This document shows positions 12,111-41,815 of a stretch of 64,000 nt of DNA, in pieces (positions within the stretch are counted from its first letter, which is position 1; every line of letters starts with the position of its first letter). Source of the stretch: Microbotryum violaceum (taxonomy: Eukaryota); the NCBI GenBank assembly GCA_001244265.2, contig CDLV01000006.1:248001-312000 (forward strand), in the 5' to 3' direction. Position numbers and translations under genes: made by a program. The notes under the pieces were generated by a model, which saw only the letters and a list, made by a program, of their open reading frames with translations, was not told where the DNA came from and searched no databases.

Positions 12111-12176
12111 GGTGGAGCGTTCGGGTGAACCGTTGTGACGTGGCAGCAGCTGTGCAAAGTCGTTGGGCTCATAACC

Positions 12177-12609: not shown

Positions 12610-14140
12610 AGGACCCCAGAAAGCCCAGCCTGAGGCGCGTAGGTAAATCCGCCAGAACTTCCGATTTTGGACCTCATTTGTCCACCAATTTTTAGATTTT
12701 TCGGCCAAAAAGGTCCCCAAAATGTCCAGTCCATCTACGCGCGTCTAAAGATAGCTCTAGAATTGCTTCAAATGCTCTAAAACATCTTCAAAAATCGCGA
12801 AAACGCCGTCCGGACGTTTTTCGCCCGGACCGAATCGCCGGAGCCCACGCGCGTGTCAGCCATTTCTTCGCCGAGGGCTCCTCACCTGCACTTACTGCCT
12901 ACCTCTCTGACTATGATTTAACGTGGCCATGGTATACATGTAACGTACAACGAGAGGTAAGATCGATTGCAGTCACTCTGCGAAGCAGTAAGCTAGCTAC
13001 CGTGAGGTGTACGAACCAAGTCCAATCGACAGTTGTTCTTCTCCTATGTTGCTGGCACAACTGGCAGGTATCATTCGTTTCAATACAAAGCAGACAAGAG
13101 AGCCGATTTTCAAAGGCGTAGCTGACGTGACGTTTCCGTCGATCGACCCAAACGGTGGGATCTTGGCGAATGCCGTGTATTGCCTTGCTCGCAATTGCAT
13201 CCGTATCTGGGCAAGAATGGACATTATTGATGAGCAGTTCTTGGGCCATATGTGCAGAGCATAATTGCAGCTCACTTCTTTACGTCTGTCTTCGATGTAC
13301 CCTATGTTTTCCGTCTCGTTTGCGGTCGAAAAGCGACTGAAGGTCCCTTGTCCTGTCCAACGAATGGACCTCGCAACTCCTGACACGGCTTCGAGACGGG
13401 CTGCACCCATTGAATACACTAAGCCTCGGATGACACTGGAGTGCATTTCACCGTGCTTGGACAATTTTGCTTTTGATGTGGGATCGGAAACTTGGGAAGT
13501 CGAGGTGGTGGCGCCGTGCCTTCCCTTGAGTAGGACAGCTCTGAGATGGAAACATTGATGTGCCCGACGGTGCTGGATCAAGCGCAAGCTGACGAGATTC
13601 GTGACGCAGAAGGGATGGGAGCCGAATAATCTGAGCCTGTGAAAGAACGCTGGTTCCATTTAGTGTTGCTACACGAAACCAATTACTTAGATGAACCTAC
13701 ACTACCCGGCAAGCTTTCATTTGCTGTCACAATGACGTCGAGCAGGAAGCGTTCCTCTGCTTGAGCATCGGCCTCGTCATAGGCCTGCTGAACGGCAAGC
13801 CTAGAATCGGAAGAGATGAGTTATCAGCTCAAAGGAGGCTGGTACAGGTCTCATTACACTCAACTTACGGTGCAGTATCATTGTTAAGGCCAAGAGCAGC
13901 TAAGGAGCGAACAGCGTTTTCAACTGACTTCCGCTCTTTCGGGTCTAGCACGACGAGACCTTTCTCCAAGCCACGTTGTCCCTAGGAAAAGCACGAACAA
14001 TAATCCCAATCAACCACGGCATCGAACAGACGAACAATTTGGCTGCTTACCAACGAAATCGAGCAGCGTGTGCAAGAACGCACTACACCCGAGGATCATT
14101 GAGGGGCTATATTGCCTCAGGCCGGGCTTTCGGGGGTCCT
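12610..14140. mobile_element. Non-autonomous TIR DNA transposon, copy A (1531 bp)
   Basis: 27-bp TIR AGGACCCCAGAAAGCCCAGCCTGAGGC vs AGGACCCCCGAAAGCCCGGCCTGAGGC; 8-bp TSD CGCGTGGG at 12602-12609 and 14141-14148; internal coding relic 12997-13659 (-). Confidence 0.9.
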
Positions 14141-14293
14141 CGCGTGGGGTCACGATGAGGCGCGTCCCTCCGAGCGCCTTGAGCTTCGGTCCCCGGACAC
14201 GAATTGATTGTAAGGGCCCTCGTCAGCGAACTACTTTGCGCTCGCAGGACTGGAAGTGACGACCACACCAAGACTCGCTTGCTATCACGCCCG

Positions 14294-15922
14294 ATGTCGT
14301 CCGCCCGAGGGGCCAGTCCGAAAGGGTACCACAGCGCTGCACTCTGGACTTCACCTCGGCGCGACGGCTCCATCTCGAGCTCGTCCAAGGCTTCGAACAG
14401 CGACACAAGTTCGGCCAAAGCACCCTGTCCGCGCAAGGTGTACATGTCGCGGTCACTCACCTCCTTCATACGCTATTCTCTGCTCACTTTCGCCCTTCTC
14501 ATGGTGCTGCTTATCTTGTCCGACTCGCCCAGTCGTTTTCGCTTGCGCTTGGGCCGGCCGGCTTTCGTGCCATCAAAGCGTTTCCATCGACTAGGGGCCG
14601 GTCATTGGTCTCCACTGGCTCAACCATTTACGCACTCCGACACCCAAGAAGAGTACGGCGCCAGGGCGTTCGATCCGGCCTTTCCCAACAGGGTCGAAGA
14701 GATCGGCTTGTCGGTCGCGGGATGGAGATGGATACCGAAGCTGCGCTCGCGCAAAGGGATGCGAGAATGGAACGCGTATCTGTTCGTTAAGCGATTGCTC
14801 AACTCGGAACATGGCCTCATTATCGTCGGTGATGAAACCAGCCAGCAGATGATGACCGCCCTCGGTGGTTTGGTCGACCCGGAGGATGCGCAAACGCATC
14901 ACTCGAAAGTCGACTGGGGTGGCCTGCTGCGAGTCGCACGAGGCGGCTACTACATCGACCCCAAATCAAAGGGGGCTCCTTTCAGATACACTTCGATCCC
15001 CAACGAGACGGCCGAGATTACGATCTGGCGGTCGACTTGGCTCAAGCGGTTGCGGAGGGATTTGCCGCACGTGCCCGATTCACGATTTGAGGGACCGGTG
15101 GTGCGGTTTGTCAGGCACGATACATTGGTCAACATGACCCGAATCACCGAGCTCGCCAAAGCGATGCGCTTGAGTCCTGTGTTCCTTAAGGAGGGAACGA
15201 GCAAACGATTGCGTCAAACCAACTGGCGATCATTGTTGCACCCAATGTCAACGGATCCGACATGGCGGGGTCAGCAAAATTCCGTGCTGCTCTTCAACAG
15301 TGGATCTCACTGGAAGAGCGAAGAGTTCGGACTCAACGCCCAAGATCTGATTGATATCAGCCAAGCAATGGTGAGTCACGAATCGGGTTAGAGTCCAGTA
15401 TCATTCAAGGCGCCATGTTGGGCTGAGCCTCGTCCGCGCAGATCCGCGACCTCCTGTCCGAGCTGGTCGAGTTGCCCCGCTTCGATATCATCGGTCGGTC
15501 AACACCACTGGCGGCGCCAGGGTGCGCCTACCACGTTTCTCCGCTCGATTCATCCCCGCCGAGAGCGAGCGATTCGGACTTTTCGAACCGGGTGTGGCAA
15601 CCGCTCGACTTGCAAAACTCGTGGTGGGCGGCCGAGATGGACACGGTTGCGCGCAAGGGGAGGACGCGGGATAATTCAGGCTCGTTGGTCTACATGAACG
15701 TCACAGAGATGGCTGGACAGAGACCTGACGCTCGAGTGGTCGGGGCGTCCGATCTACCGGATTGTCTGCATGTGAGTCGAATCGCGCCGACGAAACTTTC
15801 ATATTGCCAATCTCCGCTGATCACGATGGCTCTCGTAGTGGACGCTACCCGGGGTACCTTCCGTTTGGCTGAGAATGTTGTGGCATATCATAAGCGGTGT
15901 CGATAATAGAACAGGCTCATGA
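14294..15922 (+). CDS. Type II membrane TBL/PC-esterase (SGNH-like) polysaccharide O-acetyltransferase-like protein, 3 exons
   Basis: N-terminal TM (YSLLTFALLMVLLIL), IIVGDETSQQM, LFNSGSHW and RPDARV..DCLH|WTLPG across intron 15772-15838, matching the TBL DCxHWCLPG motif. Second intron 15371-15440. Confidence 0.8.
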
Positions 15923-16539: not shown

Positions 16540-16586
16540 CGGCACGGACGCGGCACGGACGCGGCACGGACGCGGCACGGACGCGG
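16540..16586. repeat. 11-bp tandem repeat GGCACGGACGC x4
   Basis: Seen directly in the sequence. Confidence 0.9.
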
Positions 16587-17855: not shown

Positions 17856-18882
17856 GGGTAGAGGTCGCGCGCGCTTGACTCCTCGGCGTCAAACTCTTGC
17901 AGCAAAAGCAGAAAAGACCATCTCTACCGAAGATTAGCTGTCTGGCTAATGTTGGGAAGCGGTAGAGAAGAGGAAGAAAGGCACAGGGGCGCGCGAGTCG
18001 GGTGAGGTTCTAGCAAGGGGCCGCGCTAAGACAAACTGGTCTAGCACAATGCGAAGCTTCAAGACCGAACTCCAAGTGGACCATCGAGGCTCTGAGGGGT
18101 GTCGTGTTGGACGACGTACACGAAGGGAAACTTATCTACCATGGTCGAGTGTTGGTGAGCTAGGCAATACGATCCAGGTTGCGACCGACGGGCGTCATGA
18201 ATGGGCGATACTCTGGATGGCCGATGAGACATGAGGACAGTGGCGGCAAGCTGGCGGTAGCTAGGCGGAGGCAACGGCTCAGCGAGACAGGAGAGGTAGA
18301 TCGACTAAGTCCCGATGTGGAGGCGGCGGCGCGCGAGCGTGAGTTGAACAGGCTGGCGCGGGCGCGAGACAAGGGGGCGGCTTGGCAGCGAGGACGAAAG
18401 GGGGGGCGGCTTAGCTGCGAAGACGAAAGGCGCCCGAGGTTGGAGTGTTCGAAGGCTTGTAGTAGAATGAAATTCAACATGATCGACCTGATCAGCGGGC
18501 GCCGTCGCGCACTCTCGCCCGAGGCCCGAGGCCCGAGGCATCCAGCAGGCTCGACGAGGCTCGAGCGCGCTCGCACGCTGTTATTGGCGTCGGTCGCACA
18601 GGTCAACTCTTCGCTTCATTCGATTTCCAGCCACGACAACTCGCTGCCGTCTGTGGCTACTTCGCCCAGCTGTTCCGGACTACCTATCTTGCCCGATCGC
18701 AGATCTACTGGTGCGACTCTTCAGATCCCAGGCAACTTGTTCGCTCTGCTACAACCCACCCGTGCGCAACCAGCTGCGCGTGGCCAGTCGCCGCCGGATT
18801 CCGTGGACCGCCCGGCCCAACACCGCTCGGACGGCCACGCCGAGCGTAACTTGTCACTTGACGAGGACCACCTTCCGCGGCA

Positions 18883-22739: not shown

Positions 22740-25570
22740 TTTAGGTAGAACAAAGGCGGCGACGTACCGAGACCGCTTGATGTCTCTCCATTTGCGCAGC
22801 CGCTCGGTGAACAAGGCCGGGGAACAGATCGATTTCGGGATCGTTGGGGAAAGCGAGACACGTCATGGCCAGCACAACAGCAGCCTGCGGGATGGACAAA
22901 AACGATACACATTCAGGAAATGGGCCCAAATAGACGATAGACCCGAAGAATGGGGAGAGCATGGACTCACCGCGACGGCCTTTGAGGTCAACCCCCGCAC
23001 CAAGGTTGCTGGCTACAAGAGGGCGAGGCGAAGATGGCGAGGAGACGTTTGGCGTACAGAATGCACTGCATCTTGGATCTCTTGTAATCATCGCTGGACG
23101 CGGCGAGAACTTTGAGGTGGACTTGATCGGGCGCGTGAGCAACTGATAATAACGGCGAGTCGCCCCGTACTTGGCCAGCTTCCTTGATGAGGATGTCTAG
23201 ACTTACCGCGTTGCATTTTGGCTATTACGCTCGTCATTGGGGTCTCTTAGAAAGAGCGAGCTCGAGCGACCAAGGCGACATTAGCTGCCTCCTCGATCTC
23301 GTCGTCATTCGCATCGAGTGGAAGCATGACATCGATCATGTTGAGGTCAAAAACCGTCCACGTCCGAGCAACGGCGGACGAGGAGAGCACGCAGAGAGTG
23401 AACAGGCTGTGGAAGAGTCGTCGGCGCTCCTCCGCCTGAAAAGCAGAACGCGGAACGCGGCATTGACCGGTCAATTCTATCGGCGAAGGCTGGTAAGCGA
23501 TGTATCTAGTCAGCTGACCTCGAACAGCGTGCAGCGACCTGGGGTGCGGTCCGGGTCACGATGTAGTCCAATAGAAATTGCGGCGCGGTCTCGCCTTGAG
23601 GCGTGAAAGCGGCGTCGGACGACTTGTCCGAGGAAGTCCTCTTGTTGAGCCTTAGCTCGCTGCATCGACATCGAGATGTTTGTTATTGGTCGTATTTGTG
23701 CTCCCGCGCGAGTCTGCCGCAACTCCCGGCGGGATGGGAGCACCACTCGATCGCCGGGCCTGAAGCCACAATTCGCCGTAGATAGCGACCGCGGGGGGTG
23801 CGGGTGGGGGCCGGTGTCTCGGCACTCCTGTGGGACCGTCGGTCGGCACAGACGTGATGCGGAGGTCGTGCTCGTGCTCATAGTCATGTTCGCAGTCGCG
23901 TACGTGTCGGGCTGGTGTTGGTCTTGCTGTTGCACGGGACCAGCCGTCGCTTCAACAGTGGGGTTCAAGCCGGTGTTTGTCGCTCCAGCCCCAGTCGTAC
24001 TCGCGGGCGCCCCTGCAGCAGAAGGACCCCAGAAAGCCAAGCCGGCGGCGCATTTTTTTTTTTTTTTTTTTTTTTGACATTTTGAGGACCCAAAATCCCG
24101 AAAATTGTCGAGACGCATTGCAAAAATTTGACATTTTGGGACGAAGCACACGCTTTGTCCCCGAGTCGCCTTTGCAGATTTTGACATTTTCCCCTTGGGT
24201 CGACGCAATTTTGGCCTGCCCTGAGCAGCCTACGGCATGACTTTGGGCCCGTTCGCCTTCACTTCGAGACGCGCGTCGCAATGCTCGCGGCGCTTGTACA
24301 GGTCACTAGTCATTTTTTGTGATCTTTTTATTAGTGCAGTGGCTGCTAGGGATTAGATACCAATAGTTCCCACTGTGATTGAAGCGGCGCCGGTTCCGTT
24401 CTGACATTGAAGCATAGCACGACAACATGATCCCATGCTTATTTCTCGACGAAGACCAGGACTTCTATTTGAACAGACGATGACTTCGATCGACAATCGC
24501 CGCTTACCAACATGGCGATCGCCGAGCTCGCCTTCGGTGTATCATGTCGCTCCCGCCGATGCGTCTCTTCGCACCGAGTTGTCCAAAGACAAGCCCACCC
24601 AGTAATCGACCTACGTATACCTACCCTACCCAACTCTCCAGACCAGAGACGTGTTTCTCGCCACCGATGCTCTGATCAGGATATCGACCTTTGGCCGTCG
24701 CGTTGACAAGCAGTACGGAGCGCTAGCACAACGCTCTCGTCATTTTGGATCGCTAGACGGAGTTGTAACCACTGCCACACCATTGGAGATCGGATCTCTG
24801 ATTTGCTTTGACCTCGTGTGGCATGCAGCTGCGATCAAATTGCTTATGGAGAAGAACCGCTGTCCATAGGAGCTTCGCTTCATCAAAAAAGCATGCTATT
24901 TCACTCACATTGATGGTACTATGCCGTTCCGCATGATTGTTCCGCATGATTGATGGTCGACAGGTCATCGAGGCATTAGGCCCGCCAAAGATCACATATT
25001 GTCCCACAAGGATATTACCTCATGTTACCCCGACGAGCGCATAATCAGCACGTGCGCACGTGCCGAGCAAAGATTGCCGCCCTTCGGAGCGTGCCCGGGC
25101 CGCGAGATGATGCCGCCGGTAGAATCTCTACAAGCCGCACAATTGCCACCGCGGATACAAAGAGCTCAAGTTCGGGAAAACGTAAGTCTGACAACGATGT
25201 AGCGAGCCCATCAGTAAAGCAAGGAAGGCCCTCTTGATGCCTGGAGCCACGCGCGACACCTGCCGAAGCGACCGCGCGCCGCAAGCCACGTTCGATTGGC
25301 CGCCGCGCGCCCGCAAACGCTCGGAACGCGTTTTCGAGGACTTTGGAGCGATTTGTGGAGCATGTAGAACACATTTTGATAATATTTCCGAGGCGCATGT
25401 GACATTGTGGGGCCAAAATAAGGTAAAAAACTTTGACAAAAAGGCCAAAAAACGGCGCTTTTCCACATGCGTCTCTGGCCTGGCTTTCTGGGGTCCTGCA
25501 GCAGAGTCATTGACTCTTGAGCGCGATCGGCGGCCAGCTCCGAGTCGAGATTGAAGTCAGTCGGATCCAT
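22740..25570 (-). pseudogene. Degenerate ORF interrupted by TIR element B
   Basis: MDPTDFNLDSELAADRAQ (ATG ~25570) runs into the element; protein-like fragments continue beyond it (AAGAPASTTG; VHLKVLAASSDDYKRSKMQCILYAKRLL) with stops and frameshifts. Confidence 0.35.
24023..25497. mobile_element. Non-autonomous TIR DNA transposon, copy B (1475 bp)
   Basis: 21-bp TIR AGGACCCCAGAAAGCCA(A/G)GCC; 8-bp TSD GCAGCAGA at 24015-24022 and 25498-25505; subterminal TTTGACATTTT x3; coding relic FGSLDGVVTTATPLEIGSLICF homologous to copy A. Confidence 0.92.
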
Positions 25571-26625
25571 AGTGCAGCAGTGTCGCGACTCGTTATTGCA
25601 AGCGAGGTTCAGTCGGACCAGCTGCAGTGAAATAGAGCAGGACACCAAGAGATGCACCGGCGACAGCGACGAGCCAGAGTGGTCACCGCCGACTCTGTGG
25701 TGCGCACAGACTTTGCGACGCCGACGACGGCAATTGTTCCTGCAATTGTTCCTGAGCAGGTTGCACGCCGCACGCTGAGCGCGAAAATCGGCGATCGTGT
25801 TGGAAAGGGCGCTTATTGGCGCACGGCGCACGGCGGCAGGCAGTCGGACTCGGCACGCCCAGGCACACCATGCGAATGATGAGCGCGGTGAAACCCGACA
25901 AGTTGAAATGGTAGCTGCGAGGCAGATGGTGCATCGCAGGATTTGACGACTGAAGTGGGCTGGTGCATTCCTTGCTTCGTGGCCTGCCACGCTACATCTA
26001 CATCTACATAATACCTACTTTAAAGGATTGTTCACCCGTGCGACTTGAAGGAGGCTGGCACTCACTCCGGAGTTCGGCGAGCTCGCCGAGTCCCGACTCT
26101 CGACACCATGGTGCTGATCTCAGTGATCTGCACTGATCGACATCTGCGATCGACAATTTATAGCTCATAGCTCATCAGCTGGCAGGTCGTCGGCTGAGGC
26201 GCAGAACCACTGGGAGATCTACATCTACATTGATGAATAGCATCTTGGCTTTCCTTTTTTGAGAGAAAGAAAGATCGTCCTAAGATTAAAGCGTCCACCC
26301 CGCTCCACATCATGATGTACATATATTGTTGGGTGCATTGGCGTCGATCCGGGCGACAGGAGCAAGTCCGGAATCTTCACGCCTGCTCGACAAAACTAAT
26401 TTACTATTGAGACACGTCAAACATTTAAATAACAACGGCTCAAGGACTCAAGGAACTGAATAGGTAGTTGGAGACTCGTCCGCTAGATATAACTATAATG
26501 TTCCTTCATCTGGGGCCTCCGACGTCACTCGCAGTCCGCAACAGAACGACATGCCGTTGCAGAAGACCGTCGCCGGTAGGTCATGACCAGGCATGCTTGA
26601 TCTTCATTCCGGTGCGTCCGTGAGA

Positions 26626-28993
26626 CTAGTAGTCTAAGCTTCTAAGCCCTCTGGCATCTCCTCCGAGTCGATGCAAGCGAAGAGGAGGCAGAGCCAACTT
26701 ACCCTCCGCCTCGTCCCGCGACAAATCCCCTAAAGCCAACCCTCGTCCATCAGGCAATAGAGAAATTACCGGAGGACCAGTAGAACCATGTTCAAAAGTA
26801 GAGTCCGACTGGACCTCGGCGGGGTTGTGCGATCGACTTCGCGAGCGTCGAACGCTTACTAGGTTTAGGAAGAGTGCTGTGCATCCGATCGAGTAGATGA
26901 TGCTGTAGACCCAGGGGACGAAAAAGTAGGACAACTCGACTCTGTGGATTCCTTGTAGTGGCTGATGATCAGTTTGAGTCTACGAGGTAGAGCTCTGTGC
27001 ATTCGCACCCTGAGGCCGGTAGCGAACGTACTCGGCCCACTTTGGAGAATCATTCGGAAGAATACAGATGTAGTTCCAGATTTCTCGGTGGTAAAACTGA
27101 GGGTGAGCGTGACGTTGACTGAGACACACTAAGAGCAGTCGACGTTCATCCAACGCAAAGGAGGAGGGGCCCGACAATGTCGATACGGTACAGAGGCACG
27201 TGGTGAGTTTGGCTCGCTCGTTCCGGGAGCAAGAGTGTCCGACGCTAACTCCGACTCACGACAATGAGATCCTTCTCTGCTCTTCGCAAATCGCTCATGT
27301 CCACATTCCCTCCGAGATCGATGCTCAACCCCGGAGATAAAGGCACTTCTAGAGGCTTGGATGCTGATCCATCGCCGTGCTTCGTCGAGAAATCGTCAAA
27401 CGAGCTCGGAGTACTAAATGCCGTTAGGGACGTCGAGAAGCGCTGTGCTAGCGATGGTCGTGTAGAACCAGTGAGCTCCTTGACGTCTTGTGACTCCATT
27501 CTGACACCCGTCGTACGAGTCGGGAAAGCGACCAGATGCTTCGGCATGCCCGCGGAATCAGATGCCCCCAAGGAAACAAAACCGACGTCGGGTCGGATCG
27601 ATCTTCGCCGAATCGAGGCATTGATTTTCCGCCGGAGGGTAAGCAGCAGTCCGATCGAGCCGATGTTGAGCTGGAAAGGGTGAAAAATGTGCCCGTGTGA
27701 GTGCCAGTTCGCGCTGAAATCGCAGAACCGCATCGACTCACGAGACCGATTGTAAAGGGCACGATGATGACCATGAGAACCACCGCATTCTGATATCTGA
27801 TGACTAGACATAGCTCGGTCAGCTTTCCCAGCCTCACGGGGTGGGACGGCAGACTGACAAACTCACGGCAAAATATGCGCAGCCGAGGTTGTCAGGTCCG
27901 CGTACAAGCTCTGCACATTAAGCAGCTCCCCAAAGTCCACGCCCTGGGACGGATTGTAGGATGCCTGATTACGACTGAGCGCAGATCGGAGCAAAACAAC
28001 ATGCTTCCACGTCCGTCGCCAGGCGGAAGCGCACAAAGTGTCCACGATCTGAGGGGCCGCAGGCGGGGAGCCGATCAATTGTGTCGCTTCTAGGTGGGGG
28101 GGGGGGGGGGGGGGGGGGGGGAGGGGTCCGATCTCAAGGAGCCTGGTGAGAAGAAGACTTACTAGTAGACCGACAGTCAAGGCAAAGGCGGTACCATAGA
28201 AGACCCCGTTCGCCACTTTCGCCGGCACATACCCTTGTCGGTCAGTCCGAGTGGCTCCAGACCGCGAGCGCGCCGACACGACGAGGAACGCTTGTGTCGA
28301 AGCCCACGTCACAAAGAACGCGTGCATCGATATCGGAATCCAAATAAAAGCGCGCCAAGTGTTGAAGTTTCCGAGTTGCTTGTGCTCGCCCAAGACGCGG
28401 TACTCCATATCTTCGGGATTAGGGAGTAAGTCCAAACTGATCTCAGCGCCGAGCAAGATCCGATTTCAGTGGTCTGGGAGAGCGCCTTACAAGAATATGC
28501 GAGCATTGCCACTGAGGTCAGGAGTCCCCAGAACGGTAGATGGAAGACTATTGGATAGGAGCATCGGGTGAGCTTCATCGGAATTCACAGAAGCTGGAAT
28601 AGGCCTCAAGCTTACTTTGTTGTGACAAACCCATCAACTTTGCGAGCGATCCAAAACCCTCCCGACTTGATTTTGCGCACGCGGTAATGGTAGTAAAGCA
28701 TAGCGGTATACACCAAGGTCACCAAAACACCACTGTCAAGATATGGAACGGTCCAGCATTAGGGTTGCTTCATCAGTCCGTGCTTCATGCGAGCTACGTC
28801 TGCGACGGGAGCGGCCACCCTGCTAAATCGAGGAGAAAGTCGGAGTAGATGAGCCCACGACCAGCCTTGGCCAAACTCACTATCCCGATATCGAGCAAAG
28901 CACGATGATGTGTTTCTTGAAAGCAGGTAAATTCGGAGGATAGTAGTAGAGTGCCTTGTTGAGCTGCTCGACGCCTGAGAAAATGATGGGCAT
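26626..28993 (-). CDS. Multi-exon, multi-pass membrane protein of unknown function
   Basis: ATG at 28993 (MPIIFSGVEQLNKALYYYPP); hydrophobic exons (WRAFIWIPISMHAFFVTWASTQAFL; YFFVPWVYSIIYSIGCTALFLNL) separated by GT-AG introns. Confidence 0.6.
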
Positions 28994-31091
28994 CGGAGGA
29001 CTTTTGGTCAGCTTCAACAGCAGAGCTTGACTGCCCAAGTTGGGCGCATCACGTCGCGCCGATCTCGCCCAGGGATCCCAGGATTCAGGGCGCGAGGCTC
29101 GGCTGACGGCGCGAACAAGGTTTGATGCTTCCGACTGCCACAGAGGCTGACGCTCAGATTCTGCAGGGGGAGGGGACCGAACTCACACTTATCCCATGGG
29201 TTTGCGGTCGAGGAACCCGTCGCCATGTTTATCACAACATAGCAACGTATCCTCTCCGCCTTGCCAGCACTGAGCAGCGGCCGTGAGCTCTGGCCGGGGT
29301 CGTGAGCTGCTGCTGCTGGAGGCTTGCGTTTGAAGATGAGTGTCGCGCGCGGGCTGCTGGAAGGCTGACAGATCGGAGGATCCGAGCAGGTCTGAGCGGG
29401 CGCCTAGATGTCTCGGACTCCGGGAGTTGAGACTGGGTGCAATCAAGCCAAGTGTAGAGCTGGCACGTAACACAGCGAGCTGGACAAGTCAACATTCGGT
29501 TGAGAGAATGCGAAGAGAAGGGAAGTGGCTCAGGGTGGGTGTAATGGCGATCGTTGGAGATCAAGCGAAATCCGCTGAGGTAGGTTCGACGATCAGTCCC
29601 TCGCACGGTCACAGTGCTCGTGGGGCCGTGATCGTGGAATTCGATCAAAACTCCGGACACCGGTCGAGGTCGCCCGCCGTCCGGCCGGCGTCAACTCTCC
29701 GAGTTCCGGTCAGTCAACTTTCGAGGCACATCAGCACCTGCCACACCAATAAAGCATGAGGCACCCAGGTTCGACACAAACTTTGCAGCCACGGAGTCTC
29801 GGTAGCGCCGGCTGGGCACCTGATGCCGCAGAATTAGGCCCGCACTCTCTGGAATCTGTGATTATTTCACTTTGCGAGCTAGGGTTGGAAAAACGTGGTA
29901 CGGCGCTCAGGAGCTCAGGAGGCGCGCTCGGCGTGCTGCTCGGTATCCGGCCTGCCCAGAGCGCGATGAAACACTGGGTGTTGCCTACCGAACAGAGCCT
30001 ACGTATTTCAGCAGCTGCAGTCCTATAACGAAATTCCTGGGCTCTTCTTCTGCTGGTACTTGAACCGATCAATGCAGTCGTCTAATTATAATTATAAGTC
30101 GGCCTGTACAAGCTCCGAAACATTTCGGTCCAGCTGGAGCTTAGAAGAGGCAGGTGCGGCAGATTTCGTCCGAGTCTGACTCTAGCCACAGTAGTAGCCA
30201 GACCGCGGCGGCCCCTGCTAGAGCACCTGCTACAATGCGCCGCAGAGGATCGGTCAACTTTCGCTGACTCGGATTCTCAACCAGATCTCGATTTCCTAGC
30301 TTGACGTTGAACCTTAGCAGGATAGGTAGTGGAGCAGGAGGTTCTGACGGCACTGCACACGATTCTCGACGGAATGGAGGAGGTGAGATGAGATGAGATG
30401 AGATGAGGTTTAATGCAAGGGAAGGTCAAAGTCTAAGCTACGAAGACTAGCTGAGAATGGGTTTCACAACGGGCGCGGCGCACGGCGGAGGCGCTCTGGG
30501 CTTCCTGACCCAGTAGGTACCATAGGTAGGCAGATACCGGGAGATGATCTCCTACTACTACTACCGAAAAGTACGGACCTGGTGTCGATTCGCGAACGGC
30601 AGCCATTCACCTACCTCGAGACGAAGGCTGAGGAAGGGCCAAGTCGGAAAAATCAACATCGCTCAATACAACCGAATTAGTAATCACGCTAGGAGTCTTG
30701 CCTTCGTGGACTAATAGGAAAATATCCAGCCAGATGAAAAGCAGAAAGGGGCTCTTGGGCGATTGGAAATTCGACGGCGCATCGCCAGTCACCATGACGC
30801 GCGAGCTAGACCGTGCGCGGTGAACCGAGTCTCGACGGGGTCGAGCGCGCCAGCCCCAAGCTCGTGTGCTGCCTTCATCCTAAGCACCGATACCGCTTTT
30901 GCCGGCTGGTGTTAGTGCTTCAGCTTGGTTTTTTCAGCTTAGTGTAGATCCCAAGTTGTCATTTCGCTCGCTGCGTTGCTGAACGGCGGCCCAAACGAGC
31001 TCGACGATCGCGTGTCGACTCGGTCGTCTCGCACGCGCCGTCCCCTCACACCGTCGTCCCTCACACTCAAAGCGCTGCACTTCACCTCGGG

Positions 31092-34000
31092 ATGGATGCG
31101 CAATCACCGCCACCGCAGCCTCGAGCGTCGACATCGTCCGAGAAGCAGCAGACGCTCATCGCTGGCAGCATCTCGGGGCCGAACCGATCGAACAGCGCGA
31201 CCGCAGCCATCGTCGTGTCGGATCAAGTTGTCTACGACCTCTCGCTCGCCTGCGACGCCGAACATGCCTCGGAGGAATCATGGCAAGATGCGACCGCTTC
31301 CTCGCTCGAATGGATCCTCTCTCTCGACCGTAGCAGTAGCAACAAACTCTCCGGTGGGGCCAACGACAAGGGCAAGATGAGGGAGAGCGCGGTCGTGCAT
31401 TGGTACTGCGGTCACGACGGCGCCGAGGTGTGCTGGTCTCCGAGCGTGTTCCTCGTACGCCTATTGTCAATGAAGAAGCAAGGGGACGTTGCGAGGTGGA
31501 GAGACATGTTTGAAAGGTGAGAGTTCTGGCTTCCACTCCACGGCGACAGTGTGCTCGCGCAAACGAAGCCAGATCCCGCCAGGTGCTCTCGGAGATGATC
31601 CCCCCACACACGCTCCCAGAGAGCAGACACTGACTCCCTCGATGAACTCGTACCTGCTCATAGTCTCATGCACGAATGCCCTCGGTGTGTTACAGCGTTC
31701 CAGCATGCAAAGTCCGAGTTCATCAACAGGTTCGTTCGGCTTTCTTTCCGGCAGAGATTTCGGGATCCCTTGCGAACAACTCGAATCAATCCGCGGCTGC
31801 GTTCGCACACCCTTGCTGACTCGGCAACATGTCAACAATCAGGTATCTCTCCCTTCGCAAGAGTGAGGCAGCTGTCAGGGGATTCTCGGACGGCATAGAG
31901 AGGCTCGAGCGTGATCGAGTACGTCAAGCATTTTGCGACGCTGGGTTCGGGGTGGACTCGACCTCGGCGACGGCGCATCTCGAAGATGTCGCGCCGGCAG
32001 CTATCCAGAACTGTCTGGTCAATCATCTGTTGTTCCAGGACACCAACATTGTCAACCTTATTGCTTCGGGTCTACCGGTGTCCAAGCCGATTCAACTCCC
32101 ATTTGAAGTCACACCGGGCCTGCTCGGCCTCCGCTTTCATCGGGAGCGTGCGCTGCGTGATTGGACACAGCTTCAGCTCGATAGCTGCGAGCTTGTCACT
32201 CCTCGACACTATACGCATCGAGGACTTGGTCTCATTTTTGGGGCGCACCTCAAGCTACTCGCCAGTCGCGATCGCGGCGACTTCAACGCCGAGACCGTCA
32301 TCCACCTACCCTACGTCGAAAGTCGAGTCGAATTCTGGCAGGCGCTGACGGCGGTACTCGCCTTGCTCGACTCTGAAACGATGCATTCGCAGCTCACTCG
32401 AGCGGCAAGCCTCTCCAATCCAGGTGCTCCTTTAACAGCATCAGCTGTGGGGGATATTATCCAGGTCGTGGCCGGTCATCTCGGAGACGTCGAGGATCAC
32501 TTCCCCGACGTCCTGTCGTGCTTCCGGATCATCGTGGATCGACTGCAGGAGAACGTCTGGAAGAGTGCAGCTGATCGCTTCGAAGAGGTGACACTGCACG
32601 CAATACTCGACAACACATCTTTCGAGCGAATATTCGGTGGCACCCACGAGGATGAGCCGGCGACCAACGACGAGCCGATATTGAACTGGATCCCACCGTT
32701 TCTGAGGTCGGTGGCTCAGTCATCGACTCGCTTCATCAACTCGTTGGCCATCATCATTGCGGCATTTTTGGGTAACCTGCAGGCTTTACGCTTCGAGACT
32801 GCGGCACGTACACGAGCCATCACTATCGCTGCGACGATCCTGTCTGATGTCTTCCTCGACACCGATGGCCTCATCGATGCCCAGTCCAAGTGGCCGCACG
32901 CGCGGGAAGCGGCCAAAATCCTGGACCTGCACGCCCCGACCATCGCCGATTTCGCGTTCGATCCGCGCTTTGGAGCCGAGCATTGGCGAAAGGCGACGAG
33001 CACAGCGAGGGAGCTGACGATGCGGATCATGCAGCGCGATGCTCGACGAGTTCGCGATGCGATTCATACTTTGGGTTCCTACTCGATGGAGCTCAAGCGC
33101 GCCGAAGATCAAGCGAAGCGGTCGAAAAAAGATGTCCTGGTCACCTTCGAGTCTGAAACATCGACTGCGCATGGCCCACCGCCACCCATCGTTGCATATT
33201 GTGCACCGCTCTGGAAGAGGTCGTACGAAATCGTCCGATCGACGGACGCGCGCAATCTTGCCGCTATCGTTCAGGGCACTTCGGCATGCTATCACCTCGA
33301 GCATCTCACCGCTCGAACTTGGATATACAAAGATCAGATTCGAGCACAGATGAAGGCTGTCAACGCGGCGCTCGACCAAATCCGCTTGCCGTTGATCTCG
33401 CTGGTCGAGTCCTTCACCGACGAGGCTCCTGCAGCTTTGCTCGACTTTCTCGCCCGACCAGGTATCACGGAGAACTTCGTCGTCTGGGCGCTATCGCCGA
33501 TCGAGCAAATGCACAACGTGGCGCAGGGCGTCGTCAAACAAGCGTATGACGTGTTGACCCGTCGGGATTGCCTTGGCGCCCTATTGTTGCATCACCCGGG
33601 CGCAGCCCTTCGCGGTCTTCTCCGATCATTGCGCTCATTCACCACCACTGCAAACTTTCTACCAGAAGCCTGCGGTCAAGCCAAACGCCTGGTACGCTGT
33701 CTTTCGGACGTGATCGATGTCCTCTGCGCCACCGCAAATGGTCTGCTGCGTAACGCTTCCTTTCTGCGTCGCGGCGTTGAGGAGGAAGAGCACCTTGGCT
33801 CGCGTCTGTTCGAGCTCTGGCGACGTATGTGTGGCGCGCTGGCGTTGGTCTTCAAGGAGACGCCTTCTTGGTCGACGTTCTTTGAAAACAGCGTCATGAC
33901 GGAGTGGATGCGAGATGCGATCTTGTTTGGAGTTGATTTGCTTGAACAGCAGCACGCATTCGAGATCGCGATCCGCGATACCTTGCGAAGCGGCACCAAC

Positions 34001-37000
34001 CCAGCCTCGACCAAGCAAGCGTCGACACAGGCCAGGCACGTCATAGCCGCCCTCAGTGAGCCACTTGAGGAGCTCACCTCCTGGCTTCGATTGAACGACG
34101 AGGACCTGTTGTCTGCGACTTTTGAGCTCGTTCGTTCGCTGCTTGGACGATTCGCCGAGTCCGACATGGCGCTGAGGAGCTCGACGGTGGCTCGCCTTCG
34201 CAAGATCGCGGATAGCAATCGTCGCAACCGCGCTGTGCGATCCAACATCCTTCGTGACGATCAGCTGCGCGAGCTCGTCGATGCTCTGGCCGTCAACGAC
34301 GGTGGCGAGGTGGTGGTCTACGAAGTCCCCCGTGACAAGAGCAAAGCACTTGCAGCTACCGCCGCTGTTTGCATGACTTCGAAGCTACCGGCGAGCGTGC
34401 TGGACCAATTGCGAATCCATTCGGCGCGCAGCAATTCATCCGGGACGAACGGTGTCTCCTCGACTACTGCGTCGAGGGGACCGACCTCGTTCACCACCGG
34501 CAAAGGTGTCAAAGCTTCAGCACCGAGTTCCACAATGTCCGCTCGACCTCGCGGTGTACCTTGGACGAGTTATACGTCAAAACCAGCCAAAGCTTGGAAC
34601 TCTTCGGATGATTCGTCCTCCGAAGAAGATCACGACGGCGAGAACGCGGACAGGAAACTATCGGGCCTGGCGATGCTTGCACGAGCGCAAAAGTCGTCGC
34701 CCAAGTTCAAAAAGATCACGGAACGTCGTACCGTCAAGATGATCGACAACCCGACTAGCGGCGTCGTGAGCACGCGCATCAGGGGCCCTATGGCCACGCA
34801 GGATGCGGCGCAAGATGCAGCGCAGCGACGCGCGGCCAACATGGCTCGACTTCGAGGAGTGCAAGACTACTCGTCGCTACATCGGCGCATCCTCCAGTGG
34901 GACGTCGACAAAGAAGGACCGATCGCACCGCACTTGTCCAGTCGTCTCACCCCGCTGCGCTCCTCATTCAGCAGCGCCGACGATTATGTCAACAGCTTTG
35001 AGCCGTTGCTCTTGACCGAGTGTTGGGAGCAAGTCAAGGTGGCCCGGACTGAAACGGCGAAGGATAATCACCCTGTCAGGGCGACAATCGCTGGACGTCA
35101 AGCCGTCGACGACTTTATCGATGTCTTTGTCACGATCGACCATGCCGATGTGCCACCAGGCACGTTCTTCTTCGATACCGATCTCGTGCTCCTTCGGCAA
35201 GGGCACCATCAAACGCTTGCCAAAGTTCAGGCTTTTGCGCGAAAGCGCGAGTTCTTCGAGGCGACGCTACGCACACAACTTGGGAACGACACGACCGACG
35301 CGGGACCAGGTCTGGTAGCGAGATCGCAATGGCAGATCCTCAAGTTGTATACGTACGTCCCTGTTCAGTCCTTAAAAGATAGCCTTCGATGCCTGGCTCA
35401 AACCGACTGAGTATTTGACGTGTCGTACACAGTTTGAGTACGATCCACCGCGAGTACGCAGCACTTCAGTCAATCCGCTACTTGGACTTATTCCGCGAAA
35501 TTATCAGTCCACGAGCACCACCTCCCCTCCCTTGTGACTCAAGAAATCTGAGCCGGATAATCTCGGCCTACCAGGTCAATGAGCCACAGGCGAAGGCGAT
35601 ACAAGGCGCCTTGCAGACGTCCGGGTTCAGTCTCATACAAGGTCCTCCTGGAACGGGTAAAACCAAGACGATCATTGGTCTCATCGGAGCGTTTATAGAT
35701 TCGAGACCTCGAGTTGCAGCACCGATCGTGGTTGGACAACCGACCAGCGAGGCCCACCGCGAACCCCTCGCCAAGATCTTGCTGTGTGCTCCTAGTAACG
35801 CCGCAGTTGACGAAGTCGCTAAGCGACTCAAGGACGGCATTCGCGACTCGAGTGGGCGTCTCATCGTACCAAAAGTCGTGCGTATCGGCAGCGACTCCGC
35901 GGTCGACATCTCTGTGAAAGACATCTTTCTTGACGAACTCGTCGAACGCGCGCTGAGTGGAGGCGTCAACGCGGCCGACGCAGCGAACGACTCGCAAAGG
36001 AGGATGCAGTCGATGCGCGCCGAGGTCGACCTGCTTCGCGCGACCCGTGATAAGAAGCTGGCGGCTTTGCAAGCCGTGAACGACAATGACGTCTTGCGTG
36101 AGGAGCTGCGGTATCAACTCAAGACGACCAAATCGCAGATCAACGAGATCTCGCAACGCCTTGATGCCGAAAAGGACAAGGCGCAACAATCTCGCCGCGC
36201 GCTGGATGCGCAGCAGCGTAAGATGCGGACGCAGGTCCTGTCCGATGCGGACGTCATATGTGCAACACTTTCGGGCTCGGGTCATGACTATATGGCCCAG
36301 TTACCATTCGACTTTGAGACTGTCATCATCGACGAGGCTGCGCAATCGATCGAACTGAGTTCGCTAATTCCGCTAAAGTACGGATGTCGTCGGTGCATCC
36401 TTGTTGGGGGTCAGTTGCGGCACGAGCATTTCACATGCAATCTGAACTGAAGCGGACATCTTGACCCCTCAGATCCGTTGCAGTTGCCGCCGACCGTTAT
36501 CTCCAACGCTGCCAAGCATGCGGGCTATGATCGATCGCTGTTCGTTCGCCTGATGGAGCAAGGACGAGGGCCACACTTGCTGAGGTGAGCTTTGAGGATG
36601 GCGTGCTCTCTGGGGCCGCTGAGACGAGCTCAATTCCCGGACTCGTATGCGATGCAGCATCCAATATCGAATGCATCCGCACATATCGGCGTTCCCCTCG
36701 GCCGCATTTTACCACTCTCGACTCCTGGATGGCGAGGAAATGGAGAAGAAGACGCTACAGCCATGGCATTCCAATTCTTTGTTCCCACCGTACATGTTCT
36801 TCCATGTCCGCAACGCCACCGAGGTTGCCGGTCGTCACCATTCGTGGACGAACCCCCAAGAGGCCCAGACGGCCCTTGCGATCTATGAACGTATCATACG
36901 GGAATACCCGCACGTTGACCTGAACTATCGTATCGGTATTGTCACCCCTTACAAGGGTCAAGTATGGGAACTAAAGACAACTTTTCGCCGTCGGTTCGGC

Positions 37001-38046
37001 GACGACATCCTGTCCAAGATTTCCTTCAACACAGTTGACGTGAGTAAGCCGGCGTCTGACCCGGTGTCGGTGTGCTGTCGGTGTGCTGTCGCTAATGTTT
37101 CGCGACTTCTCTTTGCACGCTTGCACGCCTGCAGGGCTTTCAAGGGCAGGAAAAGGACATTATCATTCTTTCTTGCGTCCGTGGAGGGAATGTAGATAGT
37201 GGTGTAGGATTCTTGGCCAATACACGGTACGTTTTTAACGCGTGCGGCAGGTAGGGCAACCTGCTAATTCATGAGCCACACATGCCGCAGGCGCATGAAC
37301 GTCGCTCTGACGCGTGCCCGCTCATCACTCTTCATTCTCGGCGACTCGAACAAACTGCGGTCTAATGAGTATTGGGGCAACCTCGTTGCGGATGCTGAAG
37401 CTCGAGGCTTGATGACACAGGTCAGTACACGATTCTCTCGTACGGGTCTTGAGCGAGGATGCTGACGTTTGACGGCGTTTGTGATATATAGGTCGACCCG
37501 GCTTTCTTTCGCTCCCTGCAACCGTCGAAACCTCCGACGATCCATGCGACCGTCAAGCCTCACACCTCCGTGGCTCGTGCCATCGTTGCAGAAGGGGCAC
37601 CCAACGCCTTGGTTCGGCCATCGAAGCAAGGTAGTGGTGCGACGGGTTCCTCGTCGAAGATCCATGGCATCAAGCGCCGCGGTTCGCTACCATCGCCTAG
37701 TAACTCTCCGAAGAAAGTTAAAGCTAGTCTGGAAGAGAACAGTGCAAGGGGTACCGATGCCAAGTCGGATGAAACGAAATCTCGTCCTGTTGCGGAGGTC
37801 GTTGGCTCGCAGGTAACCACGTCGCATCCAGCGTCAGCAACGTCGGCACTACCAACGCCGACGCCATCGATCATTGCCCGACCCAAACCCAAACCCTCAA
37901 TGTTCATCACTAAAAAGGTGAGGTCTGTTATGCTCTTTCCGGATAGCATTGCTCATTCAGTCTGATGTAGGGGCTGACAATACGTCACTTGACTCGACGT
38001 TCCTCCTTACCTGCAGAAACCATCCGCTCCGGGCAAGCGGCCGTGA
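31092..38046 (+). CDS. SEN1: Senataxin/Sen1 SF1 RNA-DNA helicase, multi-exon
   Basis: N-terminal VHWYC / Sen1_N region; LIQGPPGTGKT, LLCAPSNAAVDE, VIIDEAAQ, QYRMHP, GIVTPYKGQ, TVDGFQGQEKD, RRMNVALTRAR. Confidence 0.95.
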
Positions 38047-38846
38047 GCGCTCAACGGTGCGAATATTGCCCTGAATTGTAGGAAGCTCATTGGTCTTGTC
38101 ATGTACTCAGTCTACATGGAAAGAATACACGTAGGTCTGTGTGGTTGCAATCATCAGCTCCGCAACCATAGCCCTGGTCCGAGGCGTTACCGAGTTTGAG
38201 ATCGTGCGCGCGGTGAGATGGCGACTCGGACACCTTGGGATGGTCCGAAGCGACCGCCGAAGCAGTCGACAGCGCTATTTCACGGATTCGAGAACCTGCC
38301 GTTGAGGGTGCAAATAGGCCAATTTTTCAACTTACCCAACATCGAACTTAGATGCCTTTCTTCCAAGGCACAGATCACTGTGACTAGATAAGGGCCAGGT
38401 ACCCAATGCTCTAGTTGGCGCGAGGGTTGATCTCCGATCAGGCTGCCGGAAGAACTGAGGACCTGTTCGGTTCGCATTTATCAATACTACCACGATGAGC
38501 AGGTACTGTTCCACTGCAACTTGAGATTAAATGTAAAGAGCATCCAGGAGGAAGAGTATTGCCTAGCTACACAGGTTGGAGTTCGCGTGCGTTAAACCTG
38601 ATGTCATGATCTTTAACGCCGAAATCGCGAGCGGCTGACGCGCCCTGGTAAGTCCGATGGCTCGCTTCGCTCAGAAGGATGGCTTGTTTTAGCATTGGCC
38701 TGCGTGAAACTCTCCTCGCTCTTCCCCATCGGTTCTTTGGTATCGAGTCTCTATGTGCCGTGGATGCTCGCCCTACACCGCTAATCGACTCTCAAGAGTT
38801 TTTCTTTCTCTTCTCTGTTCTATCAACACAATTCAAGAATTTGTAC

Positions 38847-39091
38847 AGGACCCGGGAAAGCTCAGCCCAATCATGTGCGTCTCGGAGATTTGTACTTTAC
38901 GGGCCCCATTATGCCTTGTGATATGCTACATGACGTGATTTTTCACGGTAGAGTAACTTTTTCAACACAACCCGATAGTCTGGTCTTACACCGGAATACG
39001 TACACCCCTTATATAGGGATATTCGGTGTACAAATCGGCCTAAAAACGGGGTTTTTCGAGACGCACCTTCGGCTGAGCTTTCCCGGGTCCT
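38847..39091. mobile_element. MITE of the same TIR family, copy C (245 bp)
   Basis: Perfect 21-bp TIR AGGACCCGGGAAAGCTCAGCC, extended by TGCGTCTCG; 8-bp TSD ATTTGTAC at 38839-38846 and 39092-39099. Confidence 0.93.
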
Positions 39092-40067
39092 ATTTGTACA
39101 GATTTGTACCGTCTGTCCTTGCCGTCTACGACAGAGACAACGACCAGCCTCGGCTTTCGCTTTAGCCGCGCTCGAGTGGTTCGCAGCCGAGGCGCCGAGA
39201 CTGCACGCCGTCACGTGGGTTCATACGTTTGCATCGCTGTACATCAATGAAATCACGTGTGCATTGAGTGTTGATCAAGGGTTTGCGCCAGTATGGACTG
39301 GAACCAACGAAGGCCTCGAAGGCCGCCGCTTGCTCGCCCGGAGCCTCACGTGTCCTGGAATCGATTCACCAGTGGGCCCTTGCACGTTCCTGGCAAGTCT
39401 CCAGCTGTTCAATGTCGTGCAGAGACATGCTAATGAGACAAGAATGAACGACATGCGCATGCGTGCACCCATATGCACACGTATGCAGGCGCGACAGAGG
39501 CTGTACTCGAGAGTCCGCTGCCAGCGACGGCGACTCGATCTACGATCCGCACAAGAGTGGGGGTGGGGCTACAAGAGCCCGAAAAGTCAGTGAAGCGTTG
39601 GCGTGCTTGCTGAATGAAGCAGCGGGGTATGGTGGGTAGTGTTGCCGATGTTGGGTATTGATCAATAATCTCTTGGTCGATGACTCGACAATCACGCCAC
39701 GCCGTGACTCGTCTCGCCACGGTACCAGTGTTCTGACTTTCGGGACACTGGGAATGAGAATGAGAATCTGAATTCCAGCTAGTCTACAAAGAGACGACCC
39801 TTATCGGGCGCTGGACTATATTAACTGGGCTATCGCCTCTGACCTGACCTACGACTTCCAACCGCTCCCCTTACCTTGTTACGTCCCCAAAACGGCCATT
39901 ACTGGTCCTGAAAGCGATTTTGGCGCGAGCGAAAACTGGGGCGCGCCTATAAGACGTCTCGCCCAGGCAAGCCCAGGCGGTTACAGGCGGGCTGAGCAGT
40001 GCAGAGCAGAGCTGAAGCGCTGAAGCTTGTTGAGGCCCGCTGAGCCAGGCTGAGCCGAGGCCTAGGC

Positions 40068-41815
40068 CGGACCTGGGAAAGCTCAGCCCAATTTGCGTCC
40101 CCGAAAATGTACAAATCGGACCCTCCGAACCCCAAACTGCGACTCAAAAGTGGTACAAATCGGAAAAATTGGCACCCCAGATCTTGGATGTACGTCCTGG
40201 ATATGGTACAAATCGATGTACCCCGAACTCGCACCTCCCTGGTCGTGCCCTGCTTGGCCGATGGCCGACCACGTATCAGCGGCGGCGGTCTGGGATCAGT
40301 ACTGATCAGTAGGCGCGCGCCGCGGGCCAACTGGCGGTCCATTAGTTTGAATGAGTTTCTGAACGAAATTGGACGCGCGAGCCGATTGTAATGCAAAAAA
40401 ATGCGCTTCACGCTCACAGAGCTCACAGACGCTCACCAGATCAAGGGCGCTGGAAGTGAAACAAATGCCAATAGACGCCCCTGACAGCCTCTGACCCTCA
40501 CCTTGTGCCACGTCGTGACGTCGTGAGCATCCTACCCCGCGTGCCCTTGCTGAGGGTTAAGAGGACAGCATGTCATCTACAGCAGCCCCTCCAGATGCAC
40601 GAATTCAACTGCTCTTAGACGACGTGCTCGAGATTCCAGATGAGCAATTCGCCGCTATGTCTCCTGTTGCCGAGCTCATTGTCGACGAGCTTCTCTCGTT
40701 CGAATTTACCCGGCCTGACCTGACCGCAACGCTCACCGTATCCGAATCCGAGCCAACATTCCATCAGCATCAGATTCGCCCCAAGAGCACCACCCGCGCA
40801 TTATTCAATAAAATTCACGATCTTCGAGAATTGTACGCCTCCGGCTATCGATCCATCGAGGTTCAATCTCCTTGCATGTCGATAGTGGAACACATGCCAA
40901 TTGGTTCCGAAGCATTCTGGCAACATCTGGACTCTGTCGAGCAGCTGAAGTCAACCATCTCGGATAACGTTGATTGGCTGAGCAATGTTGAGGTCAATGA
41001 CAAACGCGACGCCGCGTACTTCAAGCTGGCAAGCACCTTGCTTGTTGCATTTCAAACACCCTCACTGCAACTGAGAAAACTTGCTCATCACGTCGGCCTC
41101 TGTATGCACCACAGTGCGCTATATTTACACAAAGCCGTCACCAGCAATGCCTCACTGCAGTGTTGAGAGCACCGAATCCCTCGGACTCGTCTCCAACATC
41201 GTGATTCAGGAGCTCTTTCCTACGCAAGCCAGTTCCGGAGTCTGCACCAATCGCAGCAGCCGCGCCCAAGCTCGAATCTTCTTCTTGAATGGTCACCGGG
41301 TCGTCAGCTGCCTTGACACCTACAACTCGAGCGTGCAGACCGTTGAGCCCCCAGCTGGTTTTGGCTTCGACGGCCACACTCGGCGAGTCCTAGACCCACA
41401 GGCGCAAGCGCGATATTACCAGCTGCAAAGCTTCAAAGGGGTCCTTGCAGCGTCGTTGGCCCCGATTCGGAAGGGACTTGCACATGCTGGCGAGGAGAGG
41501 GGTATTAATGCAGACGGAGGGAGCCGAGCCGATAAGCGGTCGGGACCTTCGCAGGGTCCAAGCGGCCGGCTGTCAAAGCGGACGCGACGTTAGTACCGGG
41601 TCGCGTCGTCGGAACGATTTTTCGTATTTCTGGCTGTTGGAGAGCGATTTTTGGGCAATTTCACGACGTTGAATTTTTCATGTTTTCGGAACTCTTCCCA
41701 TGTACGACCGAAAATACGTACAAATCAACCCCTCAGACACCTCATCCCGATGTACAAATCGGCCAAAAATCGCCGTTTTTCGAGACGCACATTGGGCTGA
41801 GCTTTCCCGGGTCCT
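40068..41815 (+). mobile_element. Non-autonomous TIR DNA transposon, copy D (1748 bp), probable internal-deletion derivative
   Basis: TIR (C/A)GGACC(T/C)GGGAAAGCTCAGCCCAAT; 8-bp TSD GCCTAGGC at 40060-40067 and 41816-41823; GTACAAATC subterminal repeats at 40109, 40153, 40206, 41718, 41752; ORFs 40570-41166 and 41081-41593. Confidence 0.92.

Follow-up and report, generated by a model that had tools for sequence, protein, structure and literature searches.

Which kind of DNA transposon produced the four short repeats with inverted ends, elements A to D, that lie within a 64-kb stretch of the Microbotryum violaceum genome (contig CDLV01000006.1, positions 248,001 to 312,000; hereafter the window)? 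The original prediction left their superfamily unassigned and regarded the family as possibly uncatalogued. We found that the coding remnants within A, B and D point to a family of large fungal proteins whose core has the predicted fold of the P transposase, and a class of fungal P elements already exists. The four repeats are very probably non-autonomous members, belonging to a Microbotryum lineage, of the cut-and-paste P superfamily.

Reading of the sequence and a script agreed with the original prediction that the window contains four complete elements, all with the inverted ends AGGACCCnnGAAAGCnnnGCC (Table 1). Each is flanked by a perfect 8-bp duplication, and the four pairs differ from one another (CGCGTGGG, GCAGCAGA, ATTTGTAC and GCCTAGGC); the probability of such a perfect match by chance is about 1.5e-5 per element. 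When the window was searched for GGACCNNRGAAAGC with at most one mismatch, eight matches were obtained, which were precisely the eight element ends (expectation from shuffles, 0.87; 0 of 100 shuffles attained eight). The 21-nt end consensus likewise recovered the same eight ends and nothing else in the window at up to three mismatches (0.56 expected). The proposed common terminal consensus thus held at all eight ends and nowhere else in the window, except that the 5' end of D reads CGGACCT rather than AGGACCC (two mismatches). The inverted repeats extend over 27 bp in A (92.6% identity), 31 bp in B (87%), 38 bp in C (86.8%) and 39 bp in D (89.7%). The two predicted subfamilies of ends are real, CCAGAAAGCC occurring in A and B and GGGAAAGCTC in C and D.

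The interiors of A, B and D were mutually unrelated as DNA, as indicated by blastn. The right ends of C and D have 68 bp in common (89.7% identity). With its length of 245 bp, 38-bp inverted ends, 8-bp duplication and the 68 bp shared with the 3' end of D, C has the features of a miniature inverted-repeat transposable element (MITE), and tblastn with the family proteins described below detected no match within it (38847-39091). With the elements set in gene orientation, all four 3' ends could be aligned along ~75 bp (41 invariant columns), and the 5' ends had just a ~21-bp core in common. Further, subterminal direct repeats were specific to each lineage: GTACAAATCG was present in five copies in D and two in C (11 in the whole window versus 2.8 expected), and TGACATTTTG in four copies in B. 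A run of ~24 T lies just inside the 5' inverted repeat of B (24053-24076), where reads seem to be cut in the sequencing runs compared below.

The coding remnants were located solely by tblastn of fetched family proteins against the window. The remnant in A matched P0017 (MVLG_06469) over residues 604-843 (64-95% identity, E 5e-93), P0161 over residues 1047-1268 (58-91%) and P0018 over residues 1324-1486 (44-64%). In B, the N-terminal remnant was ~43% identical to P0162, P0163 and P0018 (E 1e-20 to 3e-21), and the C-terminal remnant matched P0162 with 42% identity over residues 1475-1625 and 96% over residues 1626-1649. The first coding part of D is 81.6% identical to residues 1-163 of P0014 (E 1e-76). 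The deletion junction falls in the interval from about 41052 to 41114, and the tail beyond it matched residues 1254-1375 of P0161 (41114-41566, 27% identity, E 8e-8) and residues 1722-1785 of P0020 (41114-41305, 31% identity, E 1e-4). Splicing out 41137-41209 (GT..AG), as in the M. saponariae gene model P0002, gives an intact open reading frame (ORF) of 316 codons in D, the product of which is 89.9% identical to P0002. This ORF had 13 homologues of nearly the same length, comprising six in M. saponariae, six in M. silenes-dioicae and one in M. intermedium.

Three protein lineages (P0161/P0017, P0162-4/P0018 and P0014/15), which are 30-45% identical to each other, pair one-to-one with A, B and D. 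Because the terminal pieces of the genes adjoin the element ends in a single orientation in A, B and D, they indicate internal deletion rather than capture of foreign sequence. By sequence, A, B and D are apparent internal-deletion derivatives of these three related lineages. None of the four copies encodes the transposase core, and all are non-autonomous. Pfam searches of three element ORFs (D 40570-41166, A 12997-13659 on the minus strand and D 41075-41593) at E<=0.01 gave nothing meaningful; with the threshold set to E<=1, the same was true of 26 stop-to-stop ORFs taken from these three elements, A, B and D. The D ORF had no usable match in the ESM Atlas. The 38 large ORFs of the window that were scanned included the genes of a Copia element and of the host, and no transposase gene elsewhere.

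These remnants also bear on the possibility that the ends belong to a different, unseen transposase and that the P-like pieces were captured by, or nested in, A, B and D by coincidence. Such an origin would fit two observations: an autonomous copy bearing these ends was not seen, and the three interiors lack DNA similarity. However, A, B and D each retain exactly the N- and/or C-terminal ends of one gene family, these pieces sit beside the ends and all point the same way with respect to the subterminal sequences, which differ between the 5' and 3' sides, and the three protein lineages fit the three elements one-to-one. A coincidence of this kind is highly improbable, and we prefer internal deletion within a single family.

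The D ORF as a query retrieved two longer proteins, P0014 (1183 residues) and P0015, which is MVLG_00147 (1173 residues); the first 163 residues of both are ~82% identical to D. With P0014 as the query, a representative library yielded 651 proteins at E<=1e-3, of which 60 reached E<=1e-30. Lengths of 1500-2000 residues prevailed, and most of the proteins aligned with residues ~500-1180 of P0014. Gene models of the family in Microbotryum have 862-1765 residues, and full-length relatives elsewhere mostly 1500-2000. Pfam scans covered 62 members, with a threshold of E<=0.001 for 26 of them and of E<=0.1 for the other 36, and detected Peptidase_C48 in 23. P0015 carries this domain. Further, a profile of 74 members matched yeast Ulp1 (1euv; E 9.4e-17), and the Ulp1 pattern HW...D...Q.D..SCG is conserved in the family. 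The assignment of this predicted domain to Ulp1/C48 is solid, and in 23 of the 62 gene models Ulp1 and the transposase core are joined in one predicted polypeptide. The family proteins also contain a CxxC...H....C finger (C2HC-type). In supplement files 2 and 5 of a Microbotryum paper, MVLG_00147 is given as a hypothetical protein that contains Peptidase_C48 and belongs to an expanded, species-specific family of size 5 (PMC4469406).

A segment of the window on the minus strand (18086-18274) matched the N-termini of P0164 (residues 1-65, 64-78% identity) and P0010 (residues 1-19, 74%), which the closest relatives of these two proteins lack. This segment could represent a further repeat, or else flanking sequence that gene models fused to a transposon gene.

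The superfamily of the core was assessed by predicted structure. The AlphaFold model of the family member P0096, obtained from a 49-sequence alignment, had a predicted local distance difference test (pLDDT) score of 84.9 and a predicted template modelling (pTM) score of 0.77. With this model, Foldseek placed the Drosophila P transposase at the top (6pe2_A, E 2.7e-12; 6p5a_A, E 5.2e-12), followed by RAG1 (E 4.7e-4). VIA-align superposed it on 6p5a_A with Z 27.3 and a root-mean-square deviation of 3.7 over 392 of 442 residues (chain residues 137-565), and the insertion domain aligned structurally with that of the P transposase; among other superfamilies, Z was 12.4 for Transib, 11.2 for RAG1 and 9.4 for Hermes. 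The predicted structure of P0017, the protein that matches element A (pLDDT 72.8), gave the same result, with Z 25.9 over 397 of 442 residues for the Drosophila P transposase and 11.3 for the next superfamily. In the ESM Atlas, the best 10 named clusters for P0096 all (10/10) carried P/THAP9 families, and the nearest unnamed clusters were basidiomycete. The models thus suggest a core homologous in fold to the P transposase, with a helix-turn-helix and an RNase H domain split by an insertion domain, although the identity between the two is only ~14%.

Sequence profiles and motifs gave further indications. The sole transposase-related Pfam matches among the 62 members were to P families, namely Tnp_P_element HTH (PF12017) in four members (25.9 and 23.8 bits against a cut-off of 23 bits, and two weaker) and TNP-like_RNaseH_N (PF21787) in one member (weak, E 0.035, profile positions 4-131 of 137). 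The Microbotryum proteins have the conserved motifs DDTK, DG...E, D.KH..K..RN and E..EH.FG..R, which we take to resemble those of P/THAP9. The DDTK, DG and E..FG..R motifs are kept in P0017, P0018 and P0162-4, and the first motif of P0161 is EDTK. Judged by motif and strand position, they would lie where the catalytic D, D and E are expected. Further, the perfect 8-bp duplications of all four elements agree with the 7-8 bp of the P superfamily. The dismissal of P in the original prediction, on the grounds of the AGG termini, was therefore not upheld: the core of the family to which the remnants belong has the predicted P fold, and excerpts of a P review give 8 bp as the standard P duplication (PMC7776569).

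Other superfamilies with similar duplications were considered. An origin in hAT would account for the 8-bp duplications and for the short inverted ends with subterminal repeats. It is nevertheless extremely improbable, as the termini read AGGAC and not YARNG, the 62 members contain no hAT domain in Pfam (BED finger, dimerisation), and Hermes gave Z 9.3-9.4 with the P0096 and P0017 models, as compared with 27.3 and 25.9 for P. Excerpts of one survey also report no CACTA, hAT, MuDR, PIF or Tc1 outside the rusts in this subphylum, hAT being given as absent from non-Pucciniales Pucciniomycotina, Microbotryum included (PMC12210899).

The Kyakuja-Dileera-Zisupton (KDZ) group consists of large DNA transposons of basidiomycetes, and Zisupton carries a SUMO/Ulp1-type protease. 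The proteins of the Microbotryum family are likewise large and cysteine-rich with Ulp1, and 8-bp duplications are described for Zisupton and for KDZ1-3 of Cryptococcus in excerpts of two papers (PMC12730594, PMC12810828). We consider it very unlikely that the elements belong to this group: none of the 62 members matched the KDZ transposase or CxC families of Pfam, in a scan that included no KDZ positive control, and the fold matched the P transposase at Z 26-27 over ~395 residues, in a comparison with the PDB, which holds no KDZ structure. Assignment to P accordingly remains the preferred reading.

Two further candidates were rejected. For Mutator/MULE, the duplications are 8 bp and not 9-11 bp in 4/4 elements, and no MULE family of Pfam was detected in the 62 members; to our knowledge, the PDB contains no MULE structure. 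Merlin had been suggested by the size of ~1.5 kb and a duplication of 8-9 bp, and the element ORFs gave no IS1595-type Pfam match.

Several points weigh against the assignment to P. In the 64-kb window there is no full-length element with these ends, so that the putative link between ends and transposase runs through the remnants inside three deleted copies. Only 2 of the 62 members exceeded the cut-off of a Pfam P family. Searched by sequence, the PDB gave no transposase chain: phmmer with P0014 returned one chance-level match, and the 74-member profile returned Ulp1-type chains and no transposase. In P0014 and P0015, the gene models nearest D, LHVGPQS stands in place of the first catalytic DD motif (LHVDDTK), and in P0014 a P replaces the His of the Ulp1 catalytic site; these copies are probably decaying or mis-modelled. 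The termini of the family, AGG...CCT, differ from those of animal P elements, which begin with CA. Further, the N-terminal THAP (C2CH) domain of P transposases was detected in 0 of the 62 family members. The THAP feature may define animal P alone, because excerpts of the P review state that THAP domains are confined to animals (PMC7776569).

Mobility was examined by comparing 23001-42500, which covers B, C and D, with contigs of four runs (X1, X7, X14 and X19). X14 is ~1.7% diverged from the window (142 changed letters over 8353 aligned bases). In a 9060-letter contig of X14, window position 38838 was joined straight to 39102; compared with the window, this allele is without C, its two flanking copies of ATTTGTAC and the AG that follows, and a single ATTTGTAC remains. 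The empty site that had been proposed as a check in a related strain was thus found for C, indicating recent movement of the family: at least C has moved recently. Contigs of X1 and X7 entered C, from both flanks or from one. Further, seven X14 contigs left the C/D-type right end (39091) into unlike flanks, which, together with the empty site, bore out the prediction of a diversified, multi-copy cut-and-paste family. Empty sites of B and D were not seen, as X14 contigs stop at the repeats (at 24010 and 25516 around B, and at 39781 and 42054 around D); these breaks speak neither for nor against such sites.

The claim of high genome-wide abundance was only loosely supported. The summed contig depth of X1 was 57-59 in unique bins, 329-1321 in B, 551 in C and 344-1108 in D, or ~6-23x the single-copy level over the elements, a measure that is no copy number. 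Element D is multi-copy in three Microbotryum species.

The site of C has an unusual layout, ATTTGTAC-[C]-ATTTGTAC-AG-ATTTGTAC (38839-39109). The extra ATTTGTAC AG resembles a duplication to which the element's first two bases are attached, and might be the footprint of an old excision after which an element inserted anew. The target of C also resembles the subterminal motif of the family (GTACAAAT reversed).

X19 is a run of spliced, RNA-derived contigs. Its summed depth, which measures expression poorly, was 2973-12389 over B (24301-25600) and 824-990 over D (40551-41850), far above the ~170 in a neighbouring SEN1-type gene. D-type copies seem to yield a spliced antisense transcript, to judge from a minus-strand CT..AC joint of X19 at 41316-41397 (depth 1612).

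These results can be accommodated in the following scheme. Three related autonomous elements would have given rise to A, B and D through internal deletions, and the D lineage to the miniature element C. The autonomous elements would encode a protein with, in order, a conserved N-terminal domain, an Ulp1/C48 cysteine protease, a C2HC-type zinc finger, a P/THAP9-type helix-turn-helix, an RNase H-like DDE core interrupted by a helical insertion domain, like that of the Drosophila P transposase, and a C-terminal tail. Supplied in trans, this transposase would bind the ~21-39-bp terminal inverted repeats as well as the lineage-specific subterminal repeats (GTACAAATCG in C/D, TGACATTTTG in B), pair the ends and excise the element. 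Joining of the ends to the target at an 8-bp stagger, followed by repair, would then produce the 8-bp duplications. That full-length copies carry the same ends as A to D is inferred, as are the identity of the catalytic residues, any role of the Ulp1 domain and any present-day activity of a copy.

The family has several features in common with Drosophila P and the animal P-like/THAP9 elements. According to excerpts of the P review (PMC7776569), P elements make 8-bp duplications, carry repeated internal sites besides their inverted ends and include numerous internally deleted copies; the Microbotryum family shares these traits. Moreover, the models suggest that the P transposase and the family core have the same fold over the helix-turn-helix, split RNase H and insertion domain. 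Unlike animal P, the family has a C2HC-type zinc finger in place of THAP, an N-terminal Ulp1/C48 domain and further N- and C-terminal regions that make the protein ~2x longer, and ends of 21-39 bp beginning AGGACCC.

Zisupton/KDZ resembles the family in its 8-bp duplications, large elements and large cysteine-rich proteins, according to excerpts of PMC12730594 and PMC12810828, but differs from it in fold, which is P-like here, and in the KDZ/CxC Pfam families, which had no match in the 62 members. The association of Ulp1/C48 with a DNA transposon is shared with plants as well. Some plant MULE and CACTA elements carry an Ulp1 protease; their superfamily and duplication length differ from those of the family described here.

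A fungal branch of P has been catalogued already, as indicated by the class 'P-Fungi' in RepeatMasker tables. One such table lists 10 copies (46,557 bp) in Pleurotus (PMC12387193), and table 4 of another paper includes the class in Phakopsora, a rust of the same subphylum (PMC6136362). The comparison of P-Fungi with the Microbotryum family made here is one at the level of the class. The main texts of Microbotryum repeat surveys group these elements as 'TIR' (PMC4469406, PMC10502011). In the literature searched, we found no description of these ends or of an Ulp1-fused fungal P transposase. We are fairly confident that the repeats are shortened copies from a fungal branch of the known P superfamily and do not represent a novel type of transposon. 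What may be new is confined to the THAP-less, Ulp1-fused architecture and the intact 316-codon fusion ORF of D.

The latter invites comparison with KP. In D, an internal deletion appears to have joined an N-terminal coding part to the C-terminal tail with an intact ORF, albeit a predicted one, which invites the idea of a putative KP-like role. KP, however, retains the DNA-binding THAP domain, as cited in the P review (PMC7776569), and the part retained in D, residues 1-163, precedes both the Ulp1 domain and the zinc finger. A bolder proposal is that a basidiomycete-wide, THAP-less P branch with an N-terminal Ulp1/SUMO-type protease fusion, undescribed in print, has been recently active in Microbotryum, and that the 316-residue D fusion persists in several species as a KP-like regulator of transposition; taken as a whole, we regard this as unlikely.

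Assignment to P would give the anther-smut fungi a named, probably recently active cut-and-paste transposon and would take several 'host' Ulp1 genes out of the gene counts. It would also document transposases of the P type in non-animal hosts, in which the DNA-binding module is a different one and a protease is fused to the enzyme.

Table 1. Positions of elements A to D in the window, with their ends, target-site duplications, subterminal repeats and coding remnants
Feature	Position	Strand	Remark
Element A	12610-14140	gene direction minus	1531 bp; apparent internal-deletion derivative; 3' end at 12610
A target-site duplication, left copy	12602-12609		CGCGTGGG
A target-site duplication, right copy	14141-14148		CGCGTGGG
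A terminal inverted repeat, element 3' end	12610-12636	+	27 bp, 25/27 paired with 14114-14140
A terminal inverted repeat, element 5' end	14114-14140	-	
A remnant, C-terminal ~250 codons of transposase gene	12976-13978	-	intron-like gaps
Element B	24023-25497	+	1475 bp; apparent internal-deletion derivative; degenerate (stops, frameshifts)
B inverted ends, 31 bp	24023-24053 and 25467-25497		
B target-site duplication, left copy	24015-24022		GCAGCAGA
B target-site duplication, right copy	25498-25505		GCAGCAGA
B subterminal direct repeats	24075-24191	+	TGACATTTTG; copies at 24075, 24129 and 24182, fourth at 25400
B remnant, N-terminal ~125 codons	24231-24701	+	P0162 residues 23-148; P0163 and P0018 residues 1-124
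B remnant, C-terminal ~175 codons	24705-25344	+	P0162 residues 1475-1649, E 2e-38
Element C	38847-39091	+	non-coding MITE (245 bp), C/D lineage; 3' end on the right
C target-site duplication, left copy	38839-38846		ATTTGTAC
C target-site duplication, right copy	39092-39099		ATTTGTAC; then AG and a third ATTTGTAC at 39102-39109
Element D	40068-41815	+	1748 bp; apparent internal-deletion derivative
D inverted ends, ~39 bp	40068-40107 and 41777-41815		
D target-site duplication, left copy	40060-40067		GCCTAGGC
D target-site duplication, right copy	41816-41823		GCCTAGGC
D subterminal direct repeats	40109-40215	+	GTACAAATCG; copies at 40109, 40153 and 40206, two more at 41718 and 41752
D ORF part 1	40570-41136	+	codons 1-163 correspond to the N-terminal domain of the large protein
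D ORF part 2	41210-41593	+	C-terminal tail of the transposase family

None of the four elements clearly interrupts an exon. When each element and one copy of its duplication were removed in silico, no single long ORF was restored across any junction. Element A lies 660 bp from a Copia-type long terminal repeat retrotransposon on the minus strand (8086-11949), which has an open pol ORF of 1288 codons (gag-pre-integrase, rve, SH3 and RVT_2); a second RVT_2 fragment is situated beside it (6511-7824, plus strand). Elements C and D lie just downstream of the SEN1-type helicase gene (31829-38015, plus strand; SEN1_N, SEN1 barrel, AAA_11 and AAA_12), in which at least nine GT..AG introns are backed by X19 contigs. 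The contigs are broken between C and D by a stretch of low complexity or minisatellite type (39753-39884), which shows variable joints and 6-8 loose contig ends in three of the four runs (X1, X7 and X14).

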